64,000 nt of DNA, taken from the NCBI GenBank assembly GCA_963700065.1, contig CAVOWJ010000009.1, forward strand, positions 7,318-71,317. The letters are read 5' to 3'. This document shows, piece after piece, positions 1 through 41,310 of the stretch; positions within the stretch are counted from its first letter, which is position 1; every line of letters begins with the position of its first letter. This stretch comes from an uncultured Acidobacteriota bacterium. Its GTDB lineage: Bacteria; Acidobacteriota; Vicinamibacteria; Vicinamibacterales; JAKQTR01. Both the position numbers and the translations under genes were made by a program. The notes below the pieces were generated by a model that worked only from the letters and a program-made list of their open reading frames with translations, did no database searches and was not told the origin of the DNA.

Positions 1-1441
1 TCCGCGCCACCACCCCGGTCGCGACCGCAGTCGCCATGCTCGTGCCGCTCAGGCTGACATAGCACCGGGATTCCAGGATGCCGGTGCAGAACGGCTTGAC
101 GGTGATCACGCCCGAGAGCGTGCTGGCGGCGGGTACCGCTTCAATCTGGCGACGACCGGGCGCCACCAGATCGGGCTTGGCCTGCAAGTCGTACCACGTC
201 GGCCCGCGCGAGCTGAACGGCGCGACGACATCGTCAAGCCGGCTGTCGGTCCCCAGGGTGTCGACCGCGCCGATGGTGATGGCGGAGGGCGCGTTGCTGG
301 GCGAGTTGATTCCCGCGTACCCCACCTGGCCGCTGGCCGGGTCGGTGCCATTGTTGCCGGCGGAGGCGACCACGACGATCCCCGCAGCCACCGCCTTCTC
401 GACGGCCCGGACCAGCGGGTCGGTCGCGGCGGGCTCCCACACGGGGTGCCCGAGCGACAGGTTGATCACGTCGATGCCGAGCGTGATGCGATTCGCGACG
501 GCAAACTCGATAGCGCTGATGACGTCGCTGGTGCGGCCCACGCCGTTCTTGTCGAGGACCTTCAGGCCGATGAGCCGGACGCCCGGCGCCAGTCCGCCAT
601 ACGCGCCCGCCGTCTCGAGGCCCGGGTCGCTGATCTGCCCGGCGACGTGGCTGCCGTGTCCGTAATCATCGTACGGCTGCGTCGCGACGGGCCCGGTGCC
701 CATGGTGAAATCATAGAACGCGGTGACGAACCCGACCGTCGAGAGCAGGCCGGAATCGACGATCGCCACACCCACGTTGGCGCCGGTGAGCGACATGTCG
801 GTGATGCCCAGCGTGCGGTAGAGATGCGTCTTGGGCAGCAGCGTCGAATAGGACGACAGGCCTTGCAGCATGGCCGTCAGCGTCGCTGTCGGACTGAGCG
901 TGACGGTGTCCACCGCATCCGCGGTCGTTCCAGGTGTGGCCGGCCCCTTCGACGTCGTGGTGGACGTCGGCGTGGTGGCCGGGGTGCTCGTCGGTGCCGC
1001 CGTCTTGGCCGTGGGCTTCCTGACCTTCGCCTGCTTCGCGGGCGGCGTGTGCGACGACGACGAGATCGCTCCGTCGCTCGACAGGCCCGCCACCGCCGTC
1101 TTCGCCAGCAGCGCCGGCAGCAGACGAAGCTCCATGCGCGCCGTCAGCGCATTGATCAGCGGATGCTGCGCCAGCACCTGCCCTCCGAGAGCCTTGATGT
1201 CCTTGGCCACGGCAGGGAGTTGCCCGGGCTGCGCGCGGACAATCACGCGCACCACGCCGACGCGCCCCTGGGCCAGGGCGTCCCGCAGCACGCTATCCAT
1301 CGACTTGCCGGACAGCGTGGCGGCGGGTGGCTGCTGCCCACTCGCCAGCTCCGGGCTGAACGCCGACACGAGGGCCAGCGCCAGCAGCGCCAGTGCGGCC
1401 ACCAGGCCTCCGTGCCGCTTGGATTCAATGTGAGCCTTCAC
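1..1441 (-). CDS. Secreted subtilisin-family (S8) serine peptidase, paralog 1 of 4; the C-terminal part lies beyond the window start
   Basis: Not in the ORF track because no stop lies in the window. Hand translation of the minus strand from GTG (1441..1439) gives VKAHIESKRHGGLVAALALLALALVSAF (signal-peptide-like). It continues to VAIVDSGL, DDYGHGSHVAG, NLSLGH and SLSGTSMATAVATG, the Asp/His/Asn/Ser motifs of S8. The + ORF 78..665 is its antisense shadow. Confidence 0.8.
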   Translation of the reverse strand, partial: MKAHIESKRHGGLVAALALLALALVSAFSPELASGQQPPAATLSGKSMDSVLRDALAQGRVGVVRVIVRAQPGQLPAVAKDIKALGGQVLAQHPLINALTARMELRLLPALLAKTAVAGLSSDGAISSSSHTPPAKQAKVRKPTAKTAAPTSTPATTPTSTTTSKGPATPGTTADAVDTVTLSPTATLTAMLQGLSSYSTLLPKTHLYRTLGITDMSLTGANVGVAIVDSGLLSTVGFVTAFYDFTMGTGPVATQPYDDYGHGSHVAGQISDPGLETAGAYGGLAPGVRLIGLKVLDKNGVGRTSDVISAIEFAVANRITLGIDVINLSLGHPVWEPAATDPLVRAVEKAVAAGIVVVASAGNNGTDPASGQVGYAGINSPSNAPSAITIGAVDTLGTDSRLDDVVAPFSSRGPTWYDLQAKPDLVAPGRRQIEAVPAASTLSGVITVKPFCTGILESRCYVSLSGTSMATAVATGVVAR

Positions 1442-1472: not shown

Positions 1473-3980
1473 CTACCTGATCGTGGTGAGCACGCTGAGC
1501 GACGCGCCGAATGCGCTGCTCAACGAGAGGTCGCCCCAGACGATGTTGGTGGCATCGCCCCACACGATGTTGTACGCATCGCCCCAGACGATGTTGTCGC
1601 CCCAGACGATGTTGTCGCCCCAGACGATGTTGTCACCCCAGACGATGTTGTCGCCCCAGACGATGTTGCGGGCGTTCGGCTGGACGAGGGTGTCGCCCCA
1701 GACGATGTTGGTGGCATCGCCCCAGACGATGTTCTGCGCCCAGGCGCCGCGGTTCTTGTAGATGGCATCGCCCCACACGATGTTGTCGCCCCAGACGATG
1801 TTGTCGCCCCAGACGATGTTCTGGCCGTCGATCGTGGTCGACTCCGGCACGCCCGTGACCTGCCACGAGCTGTTCACCGGCATGGTCGGGTTGATCGACG
1901 CCGCCAGCGCGATGGCGCCTGCGGTGTTCAGCGAACCGGCGCCCTGCGCGAGCACGTGATAGGGCTGGCCGCTGGCGTCCGTCATCGGGAGCGCCGAGGC
2001 CATCAGCATCGCCTTGATGGCGTTGGGCGTCGGCTTGACGCCGAATTCGGCCTGCGCCGCCTCGATCATCAGTGCGACGGATCCGCTGACCACTCCGGCC
2101 GCCATGCTCGTGCCGCTCAAACGCATGTACCGGCGATCACCGACCATCGGCGCGCGCAGCGCCGGGTAGTTGAGATAGAGGTACTGCGAGTCGGTGGCGA
2201 AGGCCGCCAACCGATGGCCGGGCGCGACGAGGTCCGGCTTCGCGAAGCCGTCATACCAGCTGGGCCCGCGCGAGCTGTAGTCCGCGATCACGTCGTCGGT
2301 GCGGGCGGTGGTGTCGTTCGTCTTCACCGCACCGACGGTGATGGCCGACGGCGCATTACCGGGCGAGGTGATGCCGCCGTAGCCGACCAGGCCGGTGGAC
2401 GGCTTCACGCCGACATTGCCGGCCGAGGCGACGACCACGATGCCGGCGCGCACCGCCGCCTCGACGGCCTGGACGAGCGGGTCGGTCGCGGCCGGCTCGT
2501 GGATCGGGTGGCCGAGCGACAGATTGAGCACGTCGATGCCGTAGGTGGCCCGGTTATTCACCGCCCACTGAAGCGCATTGATGACGTTGCTGGTCTGGCC
2601 CTGGCCGTTCGCGTCAAGGACCCGCAAACTGACGTAGTAGACGCCCGGGGCTACGCCCCTGATCTCGCCATCGGTTCCGTTGCCACCAGCCAGCCCGGCC
2701 ACGTGCGATCCGTGTCCGTACGGATCGGTCCAGCTGATCGGCGAAGGGTTGGCGACGCCGCCAGTGAAGTCGCGCGTCGTCCGGATGCGGCTCGGGTTGC
2801 CGGTGCCGTCCTCATAGAGCCCGGAGTCCACGACGGCGATCGCCGAACGGTAGCCCGTCAGGGCCGTCGCCGGCGTCGCCACCGGAACCGACGCCGGCCT
2901 GAGGCACGTGGCAACCAGACCCCAGGCCTTCGAGGCGCCCAGCGTCCAGCCCACGGTCACCGTCCCGCCGCCGGACCGGGTCGCCGACGCCCCGCGGACG
3001 TTGGAACTCGAGGTGCCCGTTCCGTCAACCCACAGGTCGCTCCCGCTCCCGGTCAGGCTCAGCGTCTTCGCATCGCCGTTCGCGGCGACCGCGGCGAGGA
3101 CCACCTGGCCCACCGCGCTGGGGAGCGACACCGACGCCGTGGCGCTCGTCATCCCGCCCGCCGCCCCGGGCGTGAACGGCGTGGTCTGATCGACACCCAT
3201 GAACGTCGTGGCCGACGCCGCGACGTCGGCCGACGTGCTCATCGTGACCACGACGGAAGCCGTGCCGACCGGCGGGTTCACCAGGTACCACAGCCCTACA
3301 CCACTTCCCTTGTCTCCCGTTCCCCCTCCCGCGCCCATCCGGAGCGAGAGCGGGAGGCCGCGGTAGGTCACCGTCGAGACCGACTTCGTGAGGTCCTTGT
3401 GGGCCGTGGCGACGATGAGGATGCGGTTGGCCCCGTCGGCGACCGTGTGCGTCCACGTGATGCTCGATTTCTTCACGCCCGTGGCGCGGGTGGTCGTGTC
3501 GAACGACCCGGCAATCGTGGCCGTCCCGAAGGTGGTCTGGTCGAGGCCGAGCGTCGCCCGCAGTGTGTACGGCGTGGCGAGCGCCGTCCCGGTGACGGTG
3601 CTCGAAATGCCGGACGATGTCACGTCGTCGTCGTAGGAGATGGCGACCACGTCTTTGTCCTTCTCCAGCTGCCGGATCAGCTTCGCCGGCAGCTGTCCGG
3701 CCACCGCCTCGATGAGGGTGAAGTCGTGGCTGACCTCGACGCCGTGGGCGCGCAGCTTGGCGAGGAGCCCTTTTCTGGCTCCCGGCGCCAGCGTGAGGAT
3801 CACGCGAACGCGGGCGTCGTCTCGGGCCGCCGCAATGCCTGCGCGCACGACCTTGTCGAGTTTGCCGCGCACCGGCTGCGCCTGGGCGGCGCCGAGCGTG
3901 ACGCCGAGGAACGCCAGGACGAGAGCGGCCACGGCGAGCCGTGAACCCCAGTGTCGGCGTGTGGTGAAGGACTGAATCAT
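1473..3980 (-). CDS. Secreted S8 serine peptidase, long paralog (835 aa): signal peptide, I9-like propeptide, ~230-aa inserted domain, S8 catalytic domain, C-terminal NIVWGD hexapeptide repeats
   Basis: ORF track 1473..3980. N-terminus HWGSRLAVAALVLAFLGVTLGAAQA. Catalytic motifs AVVDSGL, YGHGSHVAGLAGG, NLSLGHP, LSGTSMAAGVVSG. RBS gggaga 5-6 nt before the ATG. Confidence 0.9.
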   Translation of the reverse strand: MIQSFTTRRHWGSRLAVAALVLAFLGVTLGAAQAQPVRGKLDKVVRAGIAAARDDARVRVILTLAPGARKGLLAKLRAHGVEVSHDFTLIEAVAGQLPAKLIRQLEKDKDVVAISYDDDVTSSGISSTVTGTALATPYTLRATLGLDQTTFGTATIAGSFDTTTRATGVKKSSITWTHTVADGANRILIVATAHKDLTKSVSTVTYRGLPLSLRMGAGGGTGDKGSGVGLWYLVNPPVGTASVVVTMSTSADVAASATTFMGVDQTTPFTPGAAGGMTSATASVSLPSAVGQVVLAAVAANGDAKTLSLTGSGSDLWVDGTGTSSSNVRGASATRSGGGTVTVGWTLGASKAWGLVATCLRPASVPVATPATALTGYRSAIAVVDSGLYEDGTGNPSRIRTTRDFTGGVANPSPISWTDPYGHGSHVAGLAGGNGTDGEIRGVAPGVYYVSLRVLDANGQGQTSNVINALQWAVNNRATYGIDVLNLSLGHPIHEPAATDPLVQAVEAAVRAGIVVVASAGNVGVKPSTGLVGYGGITSPGNAPSAITVGAVKTNDTTARTDDVIADYSSRGPSWYDGFAKPDLVAPGHRLAAFATDSQYLYLNYPALRAPMVGDRRYMRLSGTSMAAGVVSGSVALMIEAAQAEFGVKPTPNAIKAMLMASALPMTDASGQPYHVLAQGAGSLNTAGAIALAASINPTMPVNSSWQVTGVPESTTIDGQNIVWGDNIVWGDNIVWGDAIYKNRGAWAQNIVWGDATNIVWGDTLVQPNARNIVWGDNIVWGDNIVWGDNIVWGDNIVWGDAYNIVWGDATNIVWGDLSLSSAFGASLSVLTTIR
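1530..1821 (-). repeat. Coding tandem repeat: 12 NIVWGD hexapeptide units (18-bp DNA period) with short linkers
   Basis: Protein reads ...NIVWGDNIVWGDNIVWGDAIYKNRGAWAQNIVWGDATNIVWGDTLVQPNARNIVWGD(x5)AYNIVWGDATNIVWGDLSLSS. The + strand shows repeated gccccagacgatgttgtc. Confidence 0.9.
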
Positions 3981-4451: not shown

Positions 4452-6357
4452 CTACTGAATCAGCCCCAGGGAGAAGAGGGACTGGCTGAGATCGCCCCAA
4501 ATGACGCGGTCACCCCAGATGACGCGATCGCCCCAGATCACCCTATCGCCCCAGAGCACGCCTTCGCCAGTGTCGTAGCCGATGAGCGCGTCGCCCCAGA
4601 CGATGCGCGTGGCCCAGGCGGACGGGTCGCTCCAGACGAGGCTGTCGCCCCAGATGACGCGGTCGCCCCAGATCACCCGGTCGCCCCAGATCACGCGCTG
4701 GGCCCAGGCAGGATCGTTGACAAACAGCGCATCGCCCCAGATGACGCGGTCGCCCCAGATGACGCGCGACGACCAGGCATAGGTCGTGGTCCCAATCGTG
4801 GAGCAGGCCGGGCCCACCGTCGGGCTGGCCCACCACGCCTCGACCGGCGCGCGCGTGTCGATCGCCGCCGCGAGGCGGACCGCCCCCTCGCCGTTCAGTG
4901 CGCCGGCGCCCTGCGTCAGCGTGTCGTAGCCGGGCATGTCCACCGCGGTGTACTGCAGGATCGCTTTCACCGCGTTGGGCGACAGGCCCGGCGCGACGTT
5001 CGCGCCATTGCGGCCCCAGCCCTTCGTCAGCGTCTGCCGGTTGGCGTCGAGCAACTGCGCCACGACGCCGGTGGTCACGGCCGCCGCCATGCTCGTCCCG
5101 CTGAACCGCATGTACGCCGCTCCGTCCTTGTCTGTGATGGTGTCGATCACGAGGTTCGGATTCGCCAGGTAGAGCGAGGAGCTGCTGCTGACGGCCGCCA
5201 CCAGCTGCGCCCCCGGCGCCACCAGGTCGGGCTTCTGAAAGCCGTCGAACCATGTCGGCCCCCGCGACGAGAAGTCGGGGATCACATCGTCAGCCCGTGT
5301 CGTCGTCTGCCAAGTGTCGATCGCGCCGACCGTGATCGCCGACGGCGCGTTGCCGGGAGAGGTGAGGCCGCCGTACCCGACCATGCCCGTCTCCGGGTTG
5401 CGGCCGAGGTTGCCGGCCGAGGCCACCACCACGATCCCGGCGCGCACCGCGCGCTCCACCGCCTGCACCAACGGGTCCGCGGCGGCAGGCTCGAAAATTG
5501 GATGACCCAGGGACAGGTTGATCACGTCGATCCAGTACTTGTCCTTGTTGGCCACGCAGAAGTCGATCGCGCGAATCACGTTGCTCGTGAGGCCCCGGCC
5601 CTCCCCGTCCAGCACCTTCAGCCCGTAGAGCGTGATGTACGGCGCCACGCCGCGGTAGACGCCCTCGGCGAAGTTGCCCTTGTTGGCGATCAGACCGGCC
5701 ACGTGGGTGCCGTGCCCGTAGTCGTCGTAGGGCTTGCTCTTCTTCGGCGCGACCGGGTTCCCGGCCGCGTCCGTCCGCGTGAAGTCCCAGAACCCGGTCG
5801 TCCACTTGAAGCTCGAGTTCGCGGCGAGCCCGGAGTCGATGACGGCCACCCCGATTGACGCGCCGTTCCAGACGCTGCGGGTCAGGCCCAGGGTGTCCAC
5901 CAGATGATTGGACGTCCCGATGCCCGCCGGGACGTCCCCGTGCGACCTGACCACCGCGTCACTCGAGACGTGGGCGATGTCGGGGCGGCTGGCGAGTTCG
6001 GCGAGCTCATCGCCCGACACCGTCATCGACAGCAGGTCCTGCGCTGCTGCCGACCTGGTCCGCCCTGCGGCCCTTCTTGCGGGCGGCGTCCGCCACCGCC
6101 GGGCCGGCGCCGGGCGCCGCCTGCACGATGACGCGCTGGGCGCTCTTGTCAGCCTTCTGCAGCATCGCCTGCAAGTGCTGGTCGAGCTTGCGCGTGGACG
6201 CATCCTGCGGGCCGGCCGCGGCCGGCATCGCGACAAACGCGAGCGACACCAGCACAAGAGCCGCGACGAGCCCGGTACGCCAGCGCCATGTGTTCGACCT
6301 GGCCCGACCCGGGGCTATGCGTGACATGAAGTTGAAGTTGGTGTTCATGGCCTTCAT
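4452..6357 (-). pseudogene. Secreted S8 serine peptidase, short paralog 3, interrupted by an apparent 1-nt frameshift (length 1906 nt = 3n+1)
   Basis: ORF 6007..6357(-) encodes a signal peptide and I9-like propeptide (MKAMNTNF...LVAALVLVSLAFVAMPAAAG...RVIVQAAPGAGPAVADAARKKGRRADQVGSS). ORF 4452..6257(-) becomes plausible only from ...AAQDLLSMTVSGDELAELASRPDIAHVSSD. It then carries VAVIDSGL, YGHGTHVAGL, NLSLGHP, FSGTSMAAAVTTG and RVIWGD repeats. Good RBS aagggga before the ATG at 6357. Confidence 0.8.
4491..4766 (-). repeat. Coding tandem repeat: ~10 clear R[VI][IV]WGD hexapeptide units plus degenerate units
   Basis: Protein reads ...RVIWGDRVIWGDALFVNDPAWAQRVIWGDRVIWGDRVIWGDSLVWSDPSAWATRIVWGDALIGYDTGEGVLWGDRVIWGDRVIWGDRVIWGDLSQSLFSLGLIQ. 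Confidence 0.9.
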
Positions 6358-6397: not shown

Positions 6398-8866
6398 TCA
6401 CTGCACGCTATCCGGCTCCGGCGCCGGGCTCATGATCCCCGACCCGCACGACGCACCCGCAGTCAGCGAGCCGAACACCTCGAAGTCGGTGAAGAAGTCG
6501 CCCCAGACGATGTTGTCGCCCCACACGATGTTGTCGCCCCACACGATGTTGTCGCCCCACACGATGTTGTCGCCCCACACGATGTTGTCGCCCCACACGA
6601 TGTTCGACGCCGACGTCAACGTGCGCAGGCTGTCGCCCCAGACGATGTTGTCGCCCCAGACGATGTTGCTGGCCCACGACGCGCGGTTCGTGTAGATCGC
6701 ATCGCCCCAGACGATGTTGTCGCCCCACACGATGTTCTGGCCCCACGCGATCGTCTGGCCGTCTACCAGTGTCGCCGGCGCCAGGCTCGACACCAGCCAG
6801 GAGGACCCCACCGGAAGCCTCGGGTCGATGGCGCCGGCGAGGCCCGACGCGCCCCCGGGGTTCACGGCGCCCGCGCCCTGCGTCAGCACGTCGTAGGCCA
6901 CGCCGCAGCCGTCGGTCAGCGTGAACGCGGTGTGCTGCAGCATGGCCTTGAGCGCGTTGCCCGTCGGCGCCACGCCGAACTGGTTCCGTGCCTGCTCGAT
7001 CATGAGCGCCGCGGTGCCCGTCACGACACCTGCCGCCATGCTTGAGCCGCTCAGGTACATGTAGGCGCGGCCGCCATAGGCCGGGCCGCGGTAGGCGGGG
7101 AACATCTCGTAGAGGAACTGGCCCGCAGCGGCCGCCCCGAGCAGGTGATGCCCCGGTGCCACGACGTCTGGCTTCGCGTAGGCGTCGTACCAGGTCGGCC
7201 CGCGGGAACTGTAGTCGGCCACGGCGTCGTCGGTGCGGGTGTTCGTGTCCTGCGGCCGGGCCGACCCGACGGTGATGGCCGACGGCGCGTTGCCCGGCGA
7301 AGTGATGCCGGCGTAGCCGACCGTCTGCGTGTCCGGATTGAACCCGATGTTCCCGGCCGAGGCCACGACGACGATCCCGGCGCGCGAGGCCGCTTCGACG
7401 GCCTGCACCAGCGGATCGCTCGCCGCCGGCTCGAAGATCGGGTGGCCCAGCGAGAGATTGAGCACGTCGATGCCGTACGCGTCCCTGTTCGCCACCGCCC
7501 ACTGGATCGCCGCGATCACGTGGCTCGTGTAGCCGGTGCCGATGCTGTTGAGCGCGCGCAGGCTGACGAAGGACACGCCGGGCGCCACGCCCTTCACCTC
7601 GGCCTTGTCGCCCCCGATGAGGCCGGCAACGTGCGTGCCGTGGCCGTAGCCGTCCACCGGCGCGACGTGCGGCGGGTTCGGGCTGCCGCCGGTGAAGTCG
7701 CGCGTCGTCTTGATGCGGGCCGAGCCGCCGCCATCCTGCAGCATGCCCGAATCGACGATGGCCACCGTGACGCCCGCGCCGGTCAGCGCCGACTCGGACT
7801 TCGCCGCGTTGACCGGCACCGCGATCTGCGACCATTCCTGGGTGCTGTCGGCCGGGGTCCACTGCATCGCGACCGACGACGACCCCGCCTCCTCGCTGCC
7901 GCCGGCGGTGATCTGCGTGTTCGTCTTCGCGAAGACCGACGTCTGGCCCGCGCCCGCCGTGACGCTGCCGCCCAGTTCCCGGGCCACCGTGTCGAACACG
8001 AGGCCGTCGATGTCGGAGACGACCTGGACACTCGGGCTACCGTTGACCGCGTTCGCCGAGGCGGCGGTGCCGAGTGGCGCGCTCTGGTCGACGCCCGAAT
8101 AAGTGACAGCGCCGATGATCATCGACTTGGCCGCGCCGTTCAACGTCACCTTGAGGCTGGCGCTCCCGGCCGGCGGGTTCGTCAGACGCCAGAGCTCCAC
8201 GCGTGTCCGGGCGTAGGCGTCCATCGAGGACGCGACGCGCGTGAGGTACAGGCTGCCATAGGTCACGCTCGTGGCTGCGCGCGAGGCGTTGCCATCGGGG
8301 TGCATCGCTACGGCAACCAGCATCAGGCGGTTGGAGCCTGCGCCGCTCGCGTACGTGAACGTCGCCGTAGAACCCTTTCCATACAACGCGCTCGCCGCTC
8401 CCAGGCGCGTGACGCGCTCGACGGAAGCGAGGCCCAGCGTGCGGCGCAGGGTGAAGGCGCTCCCGATCGCGGTTCCCGTGACGCCGCCGCTGACGCCGTC
8501 GCCCTTCACCATGGCGTCGGTGGAGATGGAGACGACGTCCTTGTCCTTGGCCAGGCTGCGGATCAACCCCGGCGGCAGTTCGGCAGCCTGCGCCTCGATG
8601 ATGCCGAGGTCGGCGTTGACCCTTGCGCCGTGGGCCCGGAGCTTGGCATACATCCCCCGTCTCGCGCCGGGCGCCACCCTGATGATGACGCGGAGCGGCG
8701 ACTCGTCTCGAGCCGCTTGAATCAACTCGGCAACGCCTCTGTCGAGCTTGTCGCGCACGGGCTGGGCCTGGGCGGCACCGGGTGTGACGCCGACGAATGC
8801 CAGGACGAGAGCGGCCACGGCGAGCCGTGAACCCCAGTGCTGGCGTGAACCCAAGAGTGTGCGCAT
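6398..8866 (-). CDS. Secreted S8 serine peptidase, long paralog 4 (about 822 aa; the longest ORF starts at 8914)
   Basis: ORF track 6398..8914. I prefer the ATG at 8866 (MRTLLGSRQHWGSRLAVAALVLAFVGV). It aligns with the start of paralog 2 and is preceded by gggagatgagg. Motifs AIVDSGM, YGHGTHVAGLIGG, NLSLGHP, LSGSSMAAGVVTG; NIVWGD repeats at the C-terminus. Confidence 0.88.
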   Translation of the reverse strand: MRTLLGSRQHWGSRLAVAALVLAFVGVTPGAAQAQPVRDKLDRGVAELIQAARDESPLRVIIRVAPGARRGMYAKLRAHGARVNADLGIIEAQAAELPPGLIRSLAKDKDVVSISTDAMVKGDGVSGGVTGTAIGSAFTLRRTLGLASVERVTRLGAASALYGKGSTATFTYASGAGSNRLMLVAVAMHPDGNASRAATSVTYGSLYLTRVASSMDAYARTRVELWRLTNPPAGSASLKVTLNGAAKSMIIGAVTYSGVDQSAPLGTAASANAVNGSPSVQVVSDIDGLVFDTVARELGGSVTAGAGQTSVFAKTNTQITAGGSEEAGSSSVAMQWTPADSTQEWSQIAVPVNAAKSESALTGAGVTVAIVDSGMLQDGGGSARIKTTRDFTGGSPNPPHVAPVDGYGHGTHVAGLIGGDKAEVKGVAPGVSFVSLRALNSIGTGYTSHVIAAIQWAVANRDAYGIDVLNLSLGHPIFEPAASDPLVQAVEAASRAGIVVVASAGNIGFNPDTQTVGYAGITSPGNAPSAITVGSARPQDTNTRTDDAVADYSSRGPTWYDAYAKPDVVAPGHHLLGAAAAGQFLYEMFPAYRGPAYGGRAYMYLSGSSMAAGVVTGTAALMIEQARNQFGVAPTGNALKAMLQHTAFTLTDGCGVAYDVLTQGAGAVNPGGASGLAGAIDPRLPVGSSWLVSSLAPATLVDGQTIAWGQNIVWGDNIVWGDAIYTNRASWASNIVWGDNIVWGDSLRTLTSASNIVWGDNIVWGDNIVWGDNIVWGDNIVWGDNIVWGDFFTDFEVFGSLTAGASCGSGIMSPAPEPDSVQ
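6497..6736 (-). repeat. Coding tandem repeat: 10 NIVWGD units; the last six are encoded by near-identical 18-bp units (6497..6604)
   Basis: The + strand carries gtcgccccacacgatgtt five times exactly plus one 1-mismatch copy. Protein reads NIVWGDNIVWGDAIYTNRASWASNIVWGDNIVWGDSLRTLTSASNIVWGD(x6)FFTDF. Confidence 0.92.
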
Positions 8867-9204
8867 CCTCATCTCCCAATCGTCACGGGAACACGACCCC
8901 GCGCGTTGCTTCATAGCAAGACCTGGTCCGAGGGGCTGTCAGCAAGGCAAGTTGTTGTAGTAGAACGTGTTGCGCTGTTTGCGCCCGGTGCGCCGGCGCT
9001 CCGCGCCTGCCTCGATGCGCGGCACGCGTCTGCACGACAGGACACGAGCCTCCGCGGCGCCGCACGCGACGCGAAGGCGTGGATGTCGGGGATCGCTGCG
9101 CGAGACCCGTGAGCGTGAGGCCGGCAAAGAAACAGACGGTGGCGTCGAAAGCGGCGGCGGCGGCGGACTTGGCAGGATTCCGCGATCGTGATACTTGTGA
9201 CCTC

Positions 9205-17290: not shown

Positions 17291-17391
17291 GTAGCAAGAA
17301 GGGCTCACTGACGATTGTCAGAAGCAAGAATAAGACAAGCCGCACCGGTGGATGTGCTTCTTGCTTCTTGCTTCTTGCTTCTTGCTTCCCA
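17260..17391. repeat. Structured intergenic repeat element A: two tandem copies of a 25-nt AGAAGGG..ACTGACGAT.GTCAG motif, a GCCGCACCGGTGG core, and a (GCTTCTT)x4-5 heptamer array
   Basis: Motif copies at 17260..17284 (inside the RNase H 3' end) and 17297..17321. Each contains the small palindrome CTGAC-N4-GTCAG. Core at 17339..17351. Heptamers at 17356..17390, partly complementary to gaagcaagaataagacaagc (17321..17340). Confidence 0.7.
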
Positions 17392-18600: not shown

Positions 18601-18757
18601 AAGCCAGAAGGGCCCACTGACGATTGTCAGCGGGTCACGCGCGGCTGACCGCGCGACTCGACATCCCAGAAACAGGCCAGAATCTGAGCTGTTTCTTAGG
18701 AGAAGCCAGAAGAAGACACGCCGCACCAGTCGGTCTTCTTCTGGCTTCTGGCTTCTG
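18601..18757. repeat. Structured intergenic repeat element B: 25-nt motif copy, three short hairpins, and a perfect 17-bp hairpin with a GCCGCACCAGTCG loop followed by CTTCTGG heptamers
   Basis: Motif agaagggcccactgacgattgtcag at 18606..18630. Stem cgcgcgg/ccgcgcg around 18635..18657. Stem agaaacag/ctgtttct at 18669..18696. Stem agaagccagaagaagac (18701..18717) pairs with gtcttcttctggcttct (18733..18749). Confidence 0.75.
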
Positions 18758-40187: not shown

Positions 40188-41231
40188 ATGGCCGTGCGGA
40201 CCATCCTCGTCTGTGAAGCGCAGGTGCCGCTGGTGCGGGGCGGCGCGGAGATCCACGTGCGCCAGCTCGTGGACCGCCTGCGCGCGCGCGGCTACGAAGC
40301 CGACCTGCTCTCGGTGCCCTTCAAGTGGTATCCGAAGGACGAGATCCTCTCCCACGCGGCCGCGTGGCGCCTGCTCGATCTCTCCGAGAGCAATGGCACG
40401 CCCATCGACCTGGTCATCGCCACGAAGTTCCCGTCGTACTTCGCGCGGCACGCCAACAAGGTGGCGTGGCTCATCCACCAGTACCGGGCGGCCTACGAGC
40501 TGTGCGGCACGGAGTACAGCGACTTCGCCCACGCGGATCTCGACGTCGGGCTGCGGCGCCGGCTGATTGATCTCGATACGGCGATGCTCGGGGAGTGCCG
40601 GCGGATCTTCACCAACGCGCGCAACACGGCGTCGCGCCTCCGGAAGTTCAACGGCCTCGGCGCGGAACCGCTGTATCATCCCCCGAGGCTCGCCGATCGG
40701 CTGACGGCCGGGCCCGCCGGGGACTACCTCCTGTCGGTCGGCCGGCTCGAAACGGTGAAGCGCCACGACCTCGCGATCCGGGCGCTGGCGCAGGCCGGCG
40801 GCCCGCTGCGGCTGGTGGTGGTCGGCGAGGGCACGCAGGACGCCAACCTGCGCCGCCTGGCGGAGGACCTGTCGGTGGCCGGCCGCGTGCACTTCGAGGG
40901 CGCGGTCAGCGACGAGCGGCTGGTCGACCTGTTCGCCGGCGCGCTCGCGGTCGTGTACGCGCCGTTCGACGAGGACTACGGGTACGTCACGCTGGAGGCG
41001 TTTCTGGCCCGCAAGCCCGTCGTGACGGCCCGCGACTCGGGCGGCACGCTCGAGTTCGTCGAGGACGGCACGAACGGGTTCGTCTGCGAGCCGGATCCGG
41101 CGGCCGTCGCCGCGGCGTTCAGCCGGCTGCACGCGGACCGCGCGCGCGCCCGGTCGCTTGGCGACGCGGGGTACGATCGCGCGCGGCTGGTGACGTGGGA
41201 CGGGGTGATTGAGCGACTTGTGGGGGAATAG
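40188..41231 (+). CDS. Glycosyltransferase family 4 (GT-B, GT1 superfamily)
   Basis: VPLVRGGAEIHVRQLVDRL, LLSVGRLETVKRHDLAIRA, YAPFDEDYGYVTLEAFLARKPVVTARDSGGTLEFVEDGTNGF (E-x7-E region). Confidence 0.85.
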   Translation: MAVRTILVCEAQVPLVRGGAEIHVRQLVDRLRARGYEADLLSVPFKWYPKDEILSHAAAWRLLDLSESNGTPIDLVIATKFPSYFARHANKVAWLIHQYRAAYELCGTEYSDFAHADLDVGLRRRLIDLDTAMLGECRRIFTNARNTASRLRKFNGLGAEPLYHPPRLADRLTAGPAGDYLLSVGRLETVKRHDLAIRALAQAGGPLRLVVVGEGTQDANLRRLAEDLSVAGRVHFEGAVSDERLVDLFAGALAVVYAPFDEDYGYVTLEAFLARKPVVTARDSGGTLEFVEDGTNGFVCEPDPAAVAAAFSRLHADRARARSLGDAGYDRARLVTWDGVIERLVGE

Positions 41232-41310
41232 TAGCCAGTAGCCAGTAGCCAGTAGCCAGTAGCCAGTAGCCAGTAGCCAGTAGCCAGTAGCCAGTAGCCA
41301 GTAGCCAGTA
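41231..41310. repeat. Intergenic heptanucleotide tandem array (GTAGCCA) x about 11.4, beginning at the last base of the upstream stop codon
   Basis: Read directly: gtagcca repeated without a mismatch from 41231 to 41307, plus gta. Downstream segments gactggc and gactggctactgac (41331..41370) are complementary to the unit. Confidence 0.95.

Follow-up and report, generated by a model that had tools for sequence, protein, structure and literature searches.

A C-terminal domain built of short, beta-forming repeats is a known addition to secreted proteases, as in the RTX beta-roll of the serralysin type. Among subtilases, some secreted enzymes of diderm bacteria are known to lose a C-terminal extension as they mature, and Tk-SP from Thermococcus kodakarensis has a Ca-binding C-terminal domain. 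In Vpr, an extracellular S8 peptidase, C-terminal 'assembly domains' mediate the formation of active fibrils (PMC10657474). The window analysed here, a whole stretch of 64,000 nucleotides from an uncultured Acidobacteriota bacterium, encodes three S8 (subtilisin-family) peptidases, p1, p2 and p3, each ending in an array of Trp-containing hexapeptides. This array is a previously undescribed domain, fitting no catalogued protein family or solved structure. It is genuine and lineage-restricted: the enzymes that carry it C-terminally are Acidobacteriota subtilases of one Sec-exported clade.

A preliminary description of this DNA had reported three S8 paralogues with terminal Trp hexapeptide arrays, and this is confirmed: all of them lie on the minus strand and contain 12, 11 and 11 units, respectively. 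The left 9 kb of the window carries the three complete genes, whose features are the following.

p1 gene, 1473..3980, minus strand: secreted S8 (subtilisin-family) peptidase of 835 residues (Peptidase_S8, E=5.8e-43).
p1 array, 1530..1820, minus strand: 12 NIVWGD units, in blocks of 3, 1, 1, 5, 1 and 1 units.
p1 Trp linker, 1734..1766, minus strand: AIYKNRGAWAQ, which belongs to the conserved 'head'.
p1 C-terminal 18 residues, 1476..1529, minus strand: LSLSSAFGASLSVLTTIR, with a predicted local distance difference test score (pLDDT) below 50 in AlphaFold2.
p2 gene, 4452..6357, minus strand: S8 peptidase without the insert found in p1; open reading frame (ORF) of 601 residues at 4452..6257 (Peptidase_S8, E=6.1e-46).
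p2 array, 4491..4766, minus strand: 11 units, namely eight RVIWGD, RIVWGD, GVLWGD and SLVWSD.
p2 Trp linker, 4698..4730, minus strand: ALFVNDPAWAQ, at the place equivalent to the p1 linker.
p3 gene, 6398..8914, minus strand: S8 peptidase of 838 residues, with the architecture of p1 and 53% identity to it.
p3 array, 6497..6754, minus strand: 10 NIVWGD units (6497..6736) and a degenerate TIAWGQ (6737..6754).
p3 Trp linker, 6668..6700, minus strand: AIYTNRASWAS, at the place equivalent to the p1 linker.

Most of what had been described for these arrays stood, with corrections of detail. The start of the p1 array and its 12 units were right, and its end, placed at 1821, was one base over; the p2 coordinates held, with 11 units instead of about 10; and the 10 NIVWGD copies of p3 were borne out, to which the degenerate unit has to be added. 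The coordinates place the 11-residue Trp linkers at equivalent positions, as proposed. The tails that follow the arrays measure 18, 12 and 32 residues, and the hydrophobic character attributed to all three is only mild in the third. An ending similar to the p1 C-terminus, xFGxSLxVLT, is found in the locus L001.

By contrast, the strict six-residue period that had been claimed did not survive. The blocks of p1 are parted by the 11-residue linker and by spacers of 2-8 residues (2-9 residues over the window arrays), and Trp-to-Trp distances range from 6 to 17: 6, 6, 17, 8, 14, 6, 6, 6, 6, 8, 8 in p1; 6, 17, 6, 6, 6, 12, 15, 6, 6, 6 in p2; and 6, 6, 17, 6, 15, 6, 6, 6, 6, 6 in p3. At the DNA level, Tandem Repeats Finder detects an 18-bp period. 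Seven of the 12 units of p1 are one identical 18-mer, AACATCGTCTGGGGCGAC, and the five consecutive exact 18-bp copies described at 6515..6604 in p3 are indeed present. In p2, 10 distinct DNA sequences are found among the 11 units, the RVIWGD units differing at synonymous sites. Six-frame translation of the window shows the motif nowhere outside the three arrays, and 12 identical hexapeptides cannot have arisen by chance.

The domain is conserved well outside its source genome. A word-indexed search with the p1 tail returned 179 metagenomic matches, and when 1.84 billion representatives were searched exhaustively with phmmer, 509 clusters (50% identity) reached E<=1e-3, 113 of them E<=1e-10; where the protein is complete, at 550-830 residues, the match is C-terminal. 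Species-representative genomes were also scanned for DNA that could encode three spaced NIVWG units, by a degenerate pattern, which occurs at no fewer than 118 loci of metagenome-assembled genomes (MAGs). Among the matches listed, 109 are labelled as Acidobacteria/Acidobacteriota, Vicinamibacter-, Bryobacter-, Solibacter- or Terriglobia-type MAGs. The preliminary description had named a confident prediction of disorder together with a lack of conservation beyond this genome as grounds for giving up the domain; these clusters and loci are the opposite outcome.

The survey of attached catalytic domains proposed in the same description has now been run, and the array is restricted to S8 peptidases. 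Peptidase_S8 is present in 65 of the 71 longest matches of the exhaustive search, and an S8 domain lies directly upstream of the array in 102 of 132 repeat ORFs, the remainder being short, truncated or frameshifted pieces. Apparent carriers of another kind were rejected. The sole non-S8 match of the exhaustive search, P0297 (2283 residues), bears a different repeat and is spurious; L040, L023, L043 and P0246 are frameshifted pieces or read through into the next gene; and L065 is in fact a normal S8 peptidase missed by an ad hoc hidden Markov model (HMM).

A logo of 1468 units reads [G]-D-N(89%)-I(87%)-V(91%)-W(100%)-G(96%)-[T/N/S/E/D], with D or E before the Asn in 61% of units. Thus, of the invariant W-G-D proposed earlier, the Trp is invariant and the Gly nearly so, but the residue after the Gly varies (T, N, S, E, D and others). 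The conserved unit is therefore D-N-I-V-W-G rather than x-[IV]-[IV]-W-G-D; the Asp after the Gly in the window is the Asp of the next unit at zero spacer length. Trp-to-Trp spacing over the family runs from 6 to about 13 and is fairly uniform inside most proteins; it is 6 in 27% of cases and otherwise peaks broadly at 10-12, with further classes at 8, 9 and 13.

In an alignment of 102 sequences, little or no variation is seen in the first two units, in the Trp of the linker or in the unit after it. The tail thus has a constant head, behind which the array varies, with 3-22 units across relatives. Cysteines in the spacers are paired (90 spacers with two Cys, eight with one) and this pairing, together with the signal-peptide-like N-termini, indicates an extracytoplasmic, disulfide-forming location. 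Many relatives (e.g., L014, L037, L052, L064 and L086) have an acidic FDDP...F segment after the array, often with a Thr-rich stretch, and typically end in G-G-[L/F/V] at the extreme C-terminus, an ending that p1, p2 and p3 do not have. This extension and the terminal GG[LFV] may be a sorting or processing signal.

The peptide is under purifying selection, since the units diverge at synonymous sites with the peptide kept. Over 32 arrays of period 6, just 21% of neighbouring units have the same DNA sequence, and the mean difference between neighbours is 1.65 nt versus 0.59 residues. The tails of p3 and L001 are 86% identical, non-repeat spacers included, compared with 71% for the catalytic domains. 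Copy number varies between relatives (3-22 units), and this comparison is what supports the copy-number instability suggested at first, which would be a putative property within populations; the last block of L001, for instance, is one unit shorter than that of p3. Among the sequencing runs compared for strain-level copy number, none shares more than 37% of sampled words, and no record of the exact p1 protein was found. Short-read contigs break within the repeat and show merely a very high word depth there. Word depth over the repeat DNA (1572..1673 and 1776..1843; runs X1, X2, X3 and X7) reaches hundreds to thousands, against about 5-20 on the flanks, in sediment metagenomes; the excess implies that the 18-bp repeat sequence is common to many genes or organisms in those samples.

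In many gene calls from metagenomes and many MAGs built from long reads (among them P0089, P0090, P0118, L043, L059, L076 and L081), the array is split into out-of-frame pieces, such as RRRQHRLG and TTSSGA. What these pieces show is the repeat itself, read in its two remaining frames, so that frameshift errors inside the repeat lead to fragmented annotation.

The assignment of the window genes to S8 is firm. PF00082 (Peptidase S8) scores 143-158 bits in p1, p2 and p3 against a cutoff of 21.8, and the catalytic Asp, His and Ser and the oxyanion Asn are intact in all three (D-S-G, H-G-[ST]-H, N-L-S-L-G and S-G-[ST]-S-M), with AVVDSG at residue 382, HGSHVAG at 423, NLSLG at 486 and SGTSMA at 622 of p1. 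The minus-strand S8 frames have a third-position GC content of 0.91 (about 0.9), and for this reason they were preferred over the long, spurious plus-strand (antisense) ORFs. From the N-terminus, p1 comprises a signal-like segment, a propeptide, an insert of about 240 residues, the catalytic domain and the repeat tail. The N-termini of p1 and p3 are signal-peptide-like, running from basic residues through a hydrophobic segment to AQA, and so is that of the upstream ORF of p2. In p2 the signal peptide and early propeptide sit in a different frame (ORF 6007..6357) from the remaining gene, which points to a frameshift near 6070; this could be either a genuine pseudogene lesion or an assembly error.

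Searches for a described counterpart of the tail were negative at each level. With Pfam-A and NCBIfam, whole p1, p2 and p3 gave the S8 domain alone plus noise, and the tails alone nothing better than E of about 0.04-0.1. A candidate for the p2 tail, the beta-propeller repeat TIGR04275, was rejected at 19 bits against a cutoff of 85. Searches of all PDB chains (phmmer with the tail, a tail-family profile and a period-6 profile) returned the S8 end of the profile or nothing. Foldseek found no match for the tail model at E<=0.001, the best being E=1.8 in the PDB and 0.45 in BFVD, and subtilases only for the catalytic-plus-tail model. A full-text literature search for the motif strings and topic terms recovered nothing relevant, the motif strings being absent from 8.3 million papers bar one unrelated abbreviation. 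The absence of a named family, as first described, was therefore upheld: the window tails have no Pfam-A, NCBIfam or PDB sequence match, even at E<=10.

Some relatives come closer to known folds. In a scan of 71 relatives, four match the Pfam family LbR_Ice_bind and one matches HemolysinCabind (RTX). P0350, with 14 copies of GDTVVWGE at a spacing of 8, scores 32.8 bits with LbR_Ice_bind (cutoff 30), covering positions 3-93 of the 97 in the profile, and matches PDB 3ULT at E=0.0017; P0258, P0246 and P0337 score 16.7-22 bits, below that cutoff. P0303, with WGSAADNVV at a spacing of 9, scores 49.8 bits with HemolysinCabind against a cutoff of 23, and its tail matches the RTX region of CyaA (E=3e-15) and the serralysin-type protease PrtC (E=6e-5). 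It is in register with the CyaA and serralysin RTX blocks, with N on D6, V on U8 and W on x9. These are short-repeat scores that sum over many units and belong to a sister subclade, not to the window proteins, so they support a beta-roll-like architecture and not membership of either family. The suggestion of a beta-solenoid-like module made at the outset thus gains indirect support from spacing-8 and spacing-9 relatives that pass the Pfam thresholds of two beta-roll families, although the window tails hit neither. In both beta-roll registers, Asn and Val would point inwards (as an Asn ladder or Ca ligand, and as hydrophobic core) and Ile and Trp outwards.

AlphaFold2 models were built for the tail alone, from an alignment of 69 sequences, and for the catalytic domain plus tail, from 102. 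In the first, mean pLDDT is 68; the first 50 or so residues have block means of 84-92, residues 51-60 reach 78 and the later units 64-73, with the middle below 50. The head is modelled as four-residue strands with turns of two or three residues between them. In the second (predicted template modelling score 0.83), the four head strands (residues 344-366) have block-mean pLDDT of 82-91 and the Trp linker forms two short helices (367-378) at 73-77. Confidence is confined to the first three or four units and the linker, the head being nearly as confident as the catalytic domain. The predicted content of the head is therefore beta, and the DSSP pattern of these models would be compatible both with an antiparallel hairpin meander and with a tight parallel roll. 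A super-period of two or three units, a clue to coil size, is absent from the 32 arrays, in which similarity falls monotonically with lag; an excess of 6- and 9-unit runs was discarded as a further clue, as it is not independent evidence.

As for what the tail does, each D-N-I-V-W-G unit would contribute one short beta-strand, the first units and the Trp linker forming a fixed head behind the catalytic domain and the remaining units an extension of variable length. By the beta-roll register, Val (and Asn) would face the core, and the surface would carry ladders of Ile and of the invariant Trp. Such an aromatic and aliphatic surface may bind something extracytoplasmic (a polymeric substrate, the extracellular matrix or the cell envelope), which would keep the enzyme at its target or close to the cell, with the number of units tuning avidity or reach. 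Because the residues predicted to be exposed are invariant, the unit number is variable and the context is secreted, the tail is tentatively read as a beta-repeat module with Trp/Ile ladders that serves binding or retention outside the cytoplasm, with a putative fold, register and ligand; this reading seems plausible, though short of probable. The range of 3-22 units resembles that of binding or avidity repeats. Several points weigh against it. Generic binding or anchoring modules usually combine with many enzymes, and this one is restricted to a single protease clade, which speaks against generic surface anchoring, a role suggested at first alongside ligand binding; a surface with a dozen exposed Trp would be prone to aggregation; and no partner, anchor or secretion genes were found nearby among 10 neighbouring genes, nor any of a type I secretion system (T1SS). 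The window tails match no beta-roll model in Pfam at E<=10, AlphaFold2 pLDDT is below 50 for most of the array (all after construct residue 386), and Foldseek finds no analogue, so that the fold and in/out register are putative. A bolder form of this proposal, rather unlikely on present data, is that the array is an unseen minimal beta-solenoid or single-layer beta-ribbon with continuous Trp/Ile ladders, a module of a new class that would bind polymers, surfaces or itself and by which soil and sediment Acidobacteriota would tether subtilases to particulate organic matter or build extracellular arrays.

The same strict coupling to one protease clade is what would be expected of an integral stabilising domain, and the main rival builds on it: a Ca2+-dependent beta-roll, with Ca2+ bound by the D/N/G-rich turns, that stabilises or chaperones the protease after export, possibly as the serralysin-type RTX C-terminal domain or the Ca-binding domain of Tk-SP does. 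The HemolysinCabind score of P0303 and its matches to CyaA and PrtC speak for it, as does the alignment of the conserved Asn (89%) with the RTX Ca-ligand Asp6, preceded by D or E in 61% of units; Tk-SP (3afg), the nearest solved homologue, also has a C-terminal extension. But a six-residue unit can form neither the RTX Ca2+ turn nor a coil of 14-15 residues, since it leaves about three turn residues, too few for the six-residue GGxGxD Ca site. The Asp after the Gly is unconserved across the family, the window tails have no RTX match at E<=10, the signal peptides are of the Sec type, unlike T1SS substrates, and wide copy-number variation would be unusual in an obligatory folding domain. This rival is thus judged unlikely, if still to be taken seriously. 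Distinctly unlikely is self-association, in which the hydrophobic strands would pair between molecules (an intertwined beta-helix or fibrils) and so assemble the extracellular protease into oligomers or filaments. A fold dependent on partners would fit the low monomer pLDDT of a conserved, strongly order-promoting sequence, and Vpr offers a possible precedent (PMC10657474), PDB 8jmw being among the top structural matches of the catalytic domain; yet the low pLDDT may merely reflect poor repeat alignment, and the tail has no sequence relationship to the assembly domains of Vpr, 8jmw having been matched by the tail-family profile A1 via its S8 end only. By analogy with the cleaved extensions of aqualysin-type subtilases in diderm bacteria, the tail could also be a C-terminal pro-sequence that aids outer-membrane passage or folding and is then removed, in keeping with the acidic or Thr-rich segments and terminal GG[LFV] that follow the array in many relatives. 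This is very unlikely: the strong conservation of surface-candidate residues and the variable length are atypical of a pro-sequence, no cleavage motif was identified, and strands of four or five residues are too short for a membrane beta-barrel. Finally, a non-functional low-complexity expansion by DNA slippage, or an assembly artefact, would agree with the near-perfect 18-bp repeats of p1 and p3 and with the frequent mis-assembly or frameshifting of such repeats in MAGs; it is hardly credible, however, given that one peptide is kept over hundreds of clusters despite synonymous divergence, that the head architecture is conserved and that the p3 and L001 tails are better conserved than their catalytic domains. 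These conservation data exclude a meaningless expansion.

The cluster extends to the left edge of the window, where another paralogue makes it a cluster of at least four tandem subtilases.

Fourth S8 paralogue, 1..1441, minus strand: cut by the left window edge, with its C-terminus, where a tail of this kind is probable, outside the window (Peptidase_S8, E=6.4e-40; 137.7 bits on PF00082, cutoff 21.8).

The genes flanking the cluster are housekeeping ones (AIR carboxylase, MutS2, DnaG and others). The nearest named relatives of the window DnaG are Acidobacteriota MAGs at 74-79% identity, with Vicinamibacterales at 65%. In three loci whose DnaG is 84-91% identical (L119, L120 and L121), the order AIRC-MutS2-DnaG is kept and the S8 cluster is absent from the syntenic site, so the cluster is lineage-specific at that site. 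A glycosyltransferase gene lies upstream of AIRC in all three, and on the longer contigs of L119 and L120 also LepA, signal peptidase S26 and an M28 peptidase.

Other observations concern the peptidase genes and the rest of the window. The insert of about 240 residues between propeptide and catalytic domain (2871..3593 in p1, residues ~130-370, with an equivalent in p3) is missing from p2 and has no match in Pfam and NCBIfam. The relative L010 has a long, repetitive Gly/Asn-rich insert at this place, and some other relatives bear a CBM96 or 'DNRLRE domain' label at some place in the protein. In L023, L043 and P0246, a gene for a GNAT-type acetyltransferase lies closely 3' of the repeat-bearing S8 gene and is read through in stop-to-stop ORFs; such an acetyltransferase, not encoded in the window, may be a recurrent neighbour of these genes. 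A perfect heptanucleotide tandem, AGTAGCC x 11.6, occupies 41230..41310 between two plus-strand genes in this genome of 70% GC, and smaller perfect 7-mers, also intergenic, are found at 17355..17388 and 18738..18757.

Acidobacteriota are among the most abundant bacteria of soils and sediments, and most of them are uncultured. The deployment of their extracellular proteases bears on nitrogen and carbon turnover. The tail marks a large clade of subtilases (the 509 clusters at 50% identity), often present as tandem paralogues and missing from domain databases. Its definition as a domain would improve thousands of 'S8 family peptidase' and 'hypothetical' annotations, and would account for the frequent fragmentation of S8 repeat genes in MAGs. 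If the Trp-ladder model were true, it would provide a new minimal repeat fold or binding module usable in protein engineering.

In comparison with known systems, the lack of fit to the definitions of the left-handed beta-helix (LbH), RTX and choline-binding repeats noted initially was borne out. The LbH hexapeptide repeat shares the period of six residues and, in the register W-G-D-N-I-V, a Gly on the [GAED] position. This is the best register for the consensus [LIV]-[GAED]-X2-[STAV]-X (PF00132/PS00101), and it fails two of the three defined positions, with W for [LIV] and I for [STAV]; the family spacing of 6 to 13 differs as well. No Hexapep HMM match was found on the window tails (E<=10) or in the 71 relatives, and a search of the PDB with the period-6 profile brings up no LbH chain. 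A triangular 18-residue coil, as in the LbH, may yet be formed; the 32 arrays show no three-unit super-period, and Foldseek on the low-confidence model returns no LbH. The choline- and cell-wall-binding repeats and similar aromatic beta-hairpin solenoids may be functional analogues, being C-terminal, aromatic-rich beta repeats of secreted enzymes with variable copy number. Their consensus is different and they are found in Firmicutes on many enzyme types; PF01473 gave no match at E<=10, the unit having 6 versus about 20 residues. The B-type monocot mannose-binding lectin motif (QxDxNxVxY) does not apply either, the window units having no Q and Y, a different spacing and no Pfam match; the sole B-type lectin signal is that of P0350 with putidacin L1 in the PDB (E=8e-5).

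The closest solved catalytic domain is that of Tk-SP (3afg, 9ues; E=1e-30, 32% identity), likewise an S8 peptidase with an extra C-terminal domain. The alignment stops at query residue 293 of 465, before the tail, and no short tandem repeat makes up the extra domain of Tk-SP. The RTX beta-roll (PF00353; serralysin-type C-terminal domain, CyaA) is similar in placing tandem, short, G/D/N-rich repeats C-terminal to a secreted protease and in giving one short x-U-x strand per unit, the spacing-9 relative P0303 being in register with CyaA and PrtC. It differs in its units of 9 residues with a GGxGxD turn, against units of 6 without it and no PF00353 match at E<=10 in the window; in a variable position where the Trp of the window family is invariant; and in export by a T1SS without an N-terminal signal peptide, whereas p1 and p3 have signal-peptide-like N-termini and no T1SS among the 10 neighbouring genes. 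From the ice-binding beta-roll of the grass Lolium perenne (PF21300, 3ULT), a plant antifreeze and not a bacterial protease, the window tails also differ: they have no match to PF21300 (LbR_Ice_bind), their coil would be of 12 (or 18) residues, coils of 14-15 being impossible with six-residue units, and their putative surface residues are Ile and Trp instead of the small Thr/Ser/Val of the ice-binding face. The grass motif xxNxVxG is nevertheless matched exactly by x-D-N-I-V-W-G. The domain thus adds to the known theme of C-terminal beta-repeat extensions on secreted proteases, with a kinship to beta-rolls at the level of the motif.

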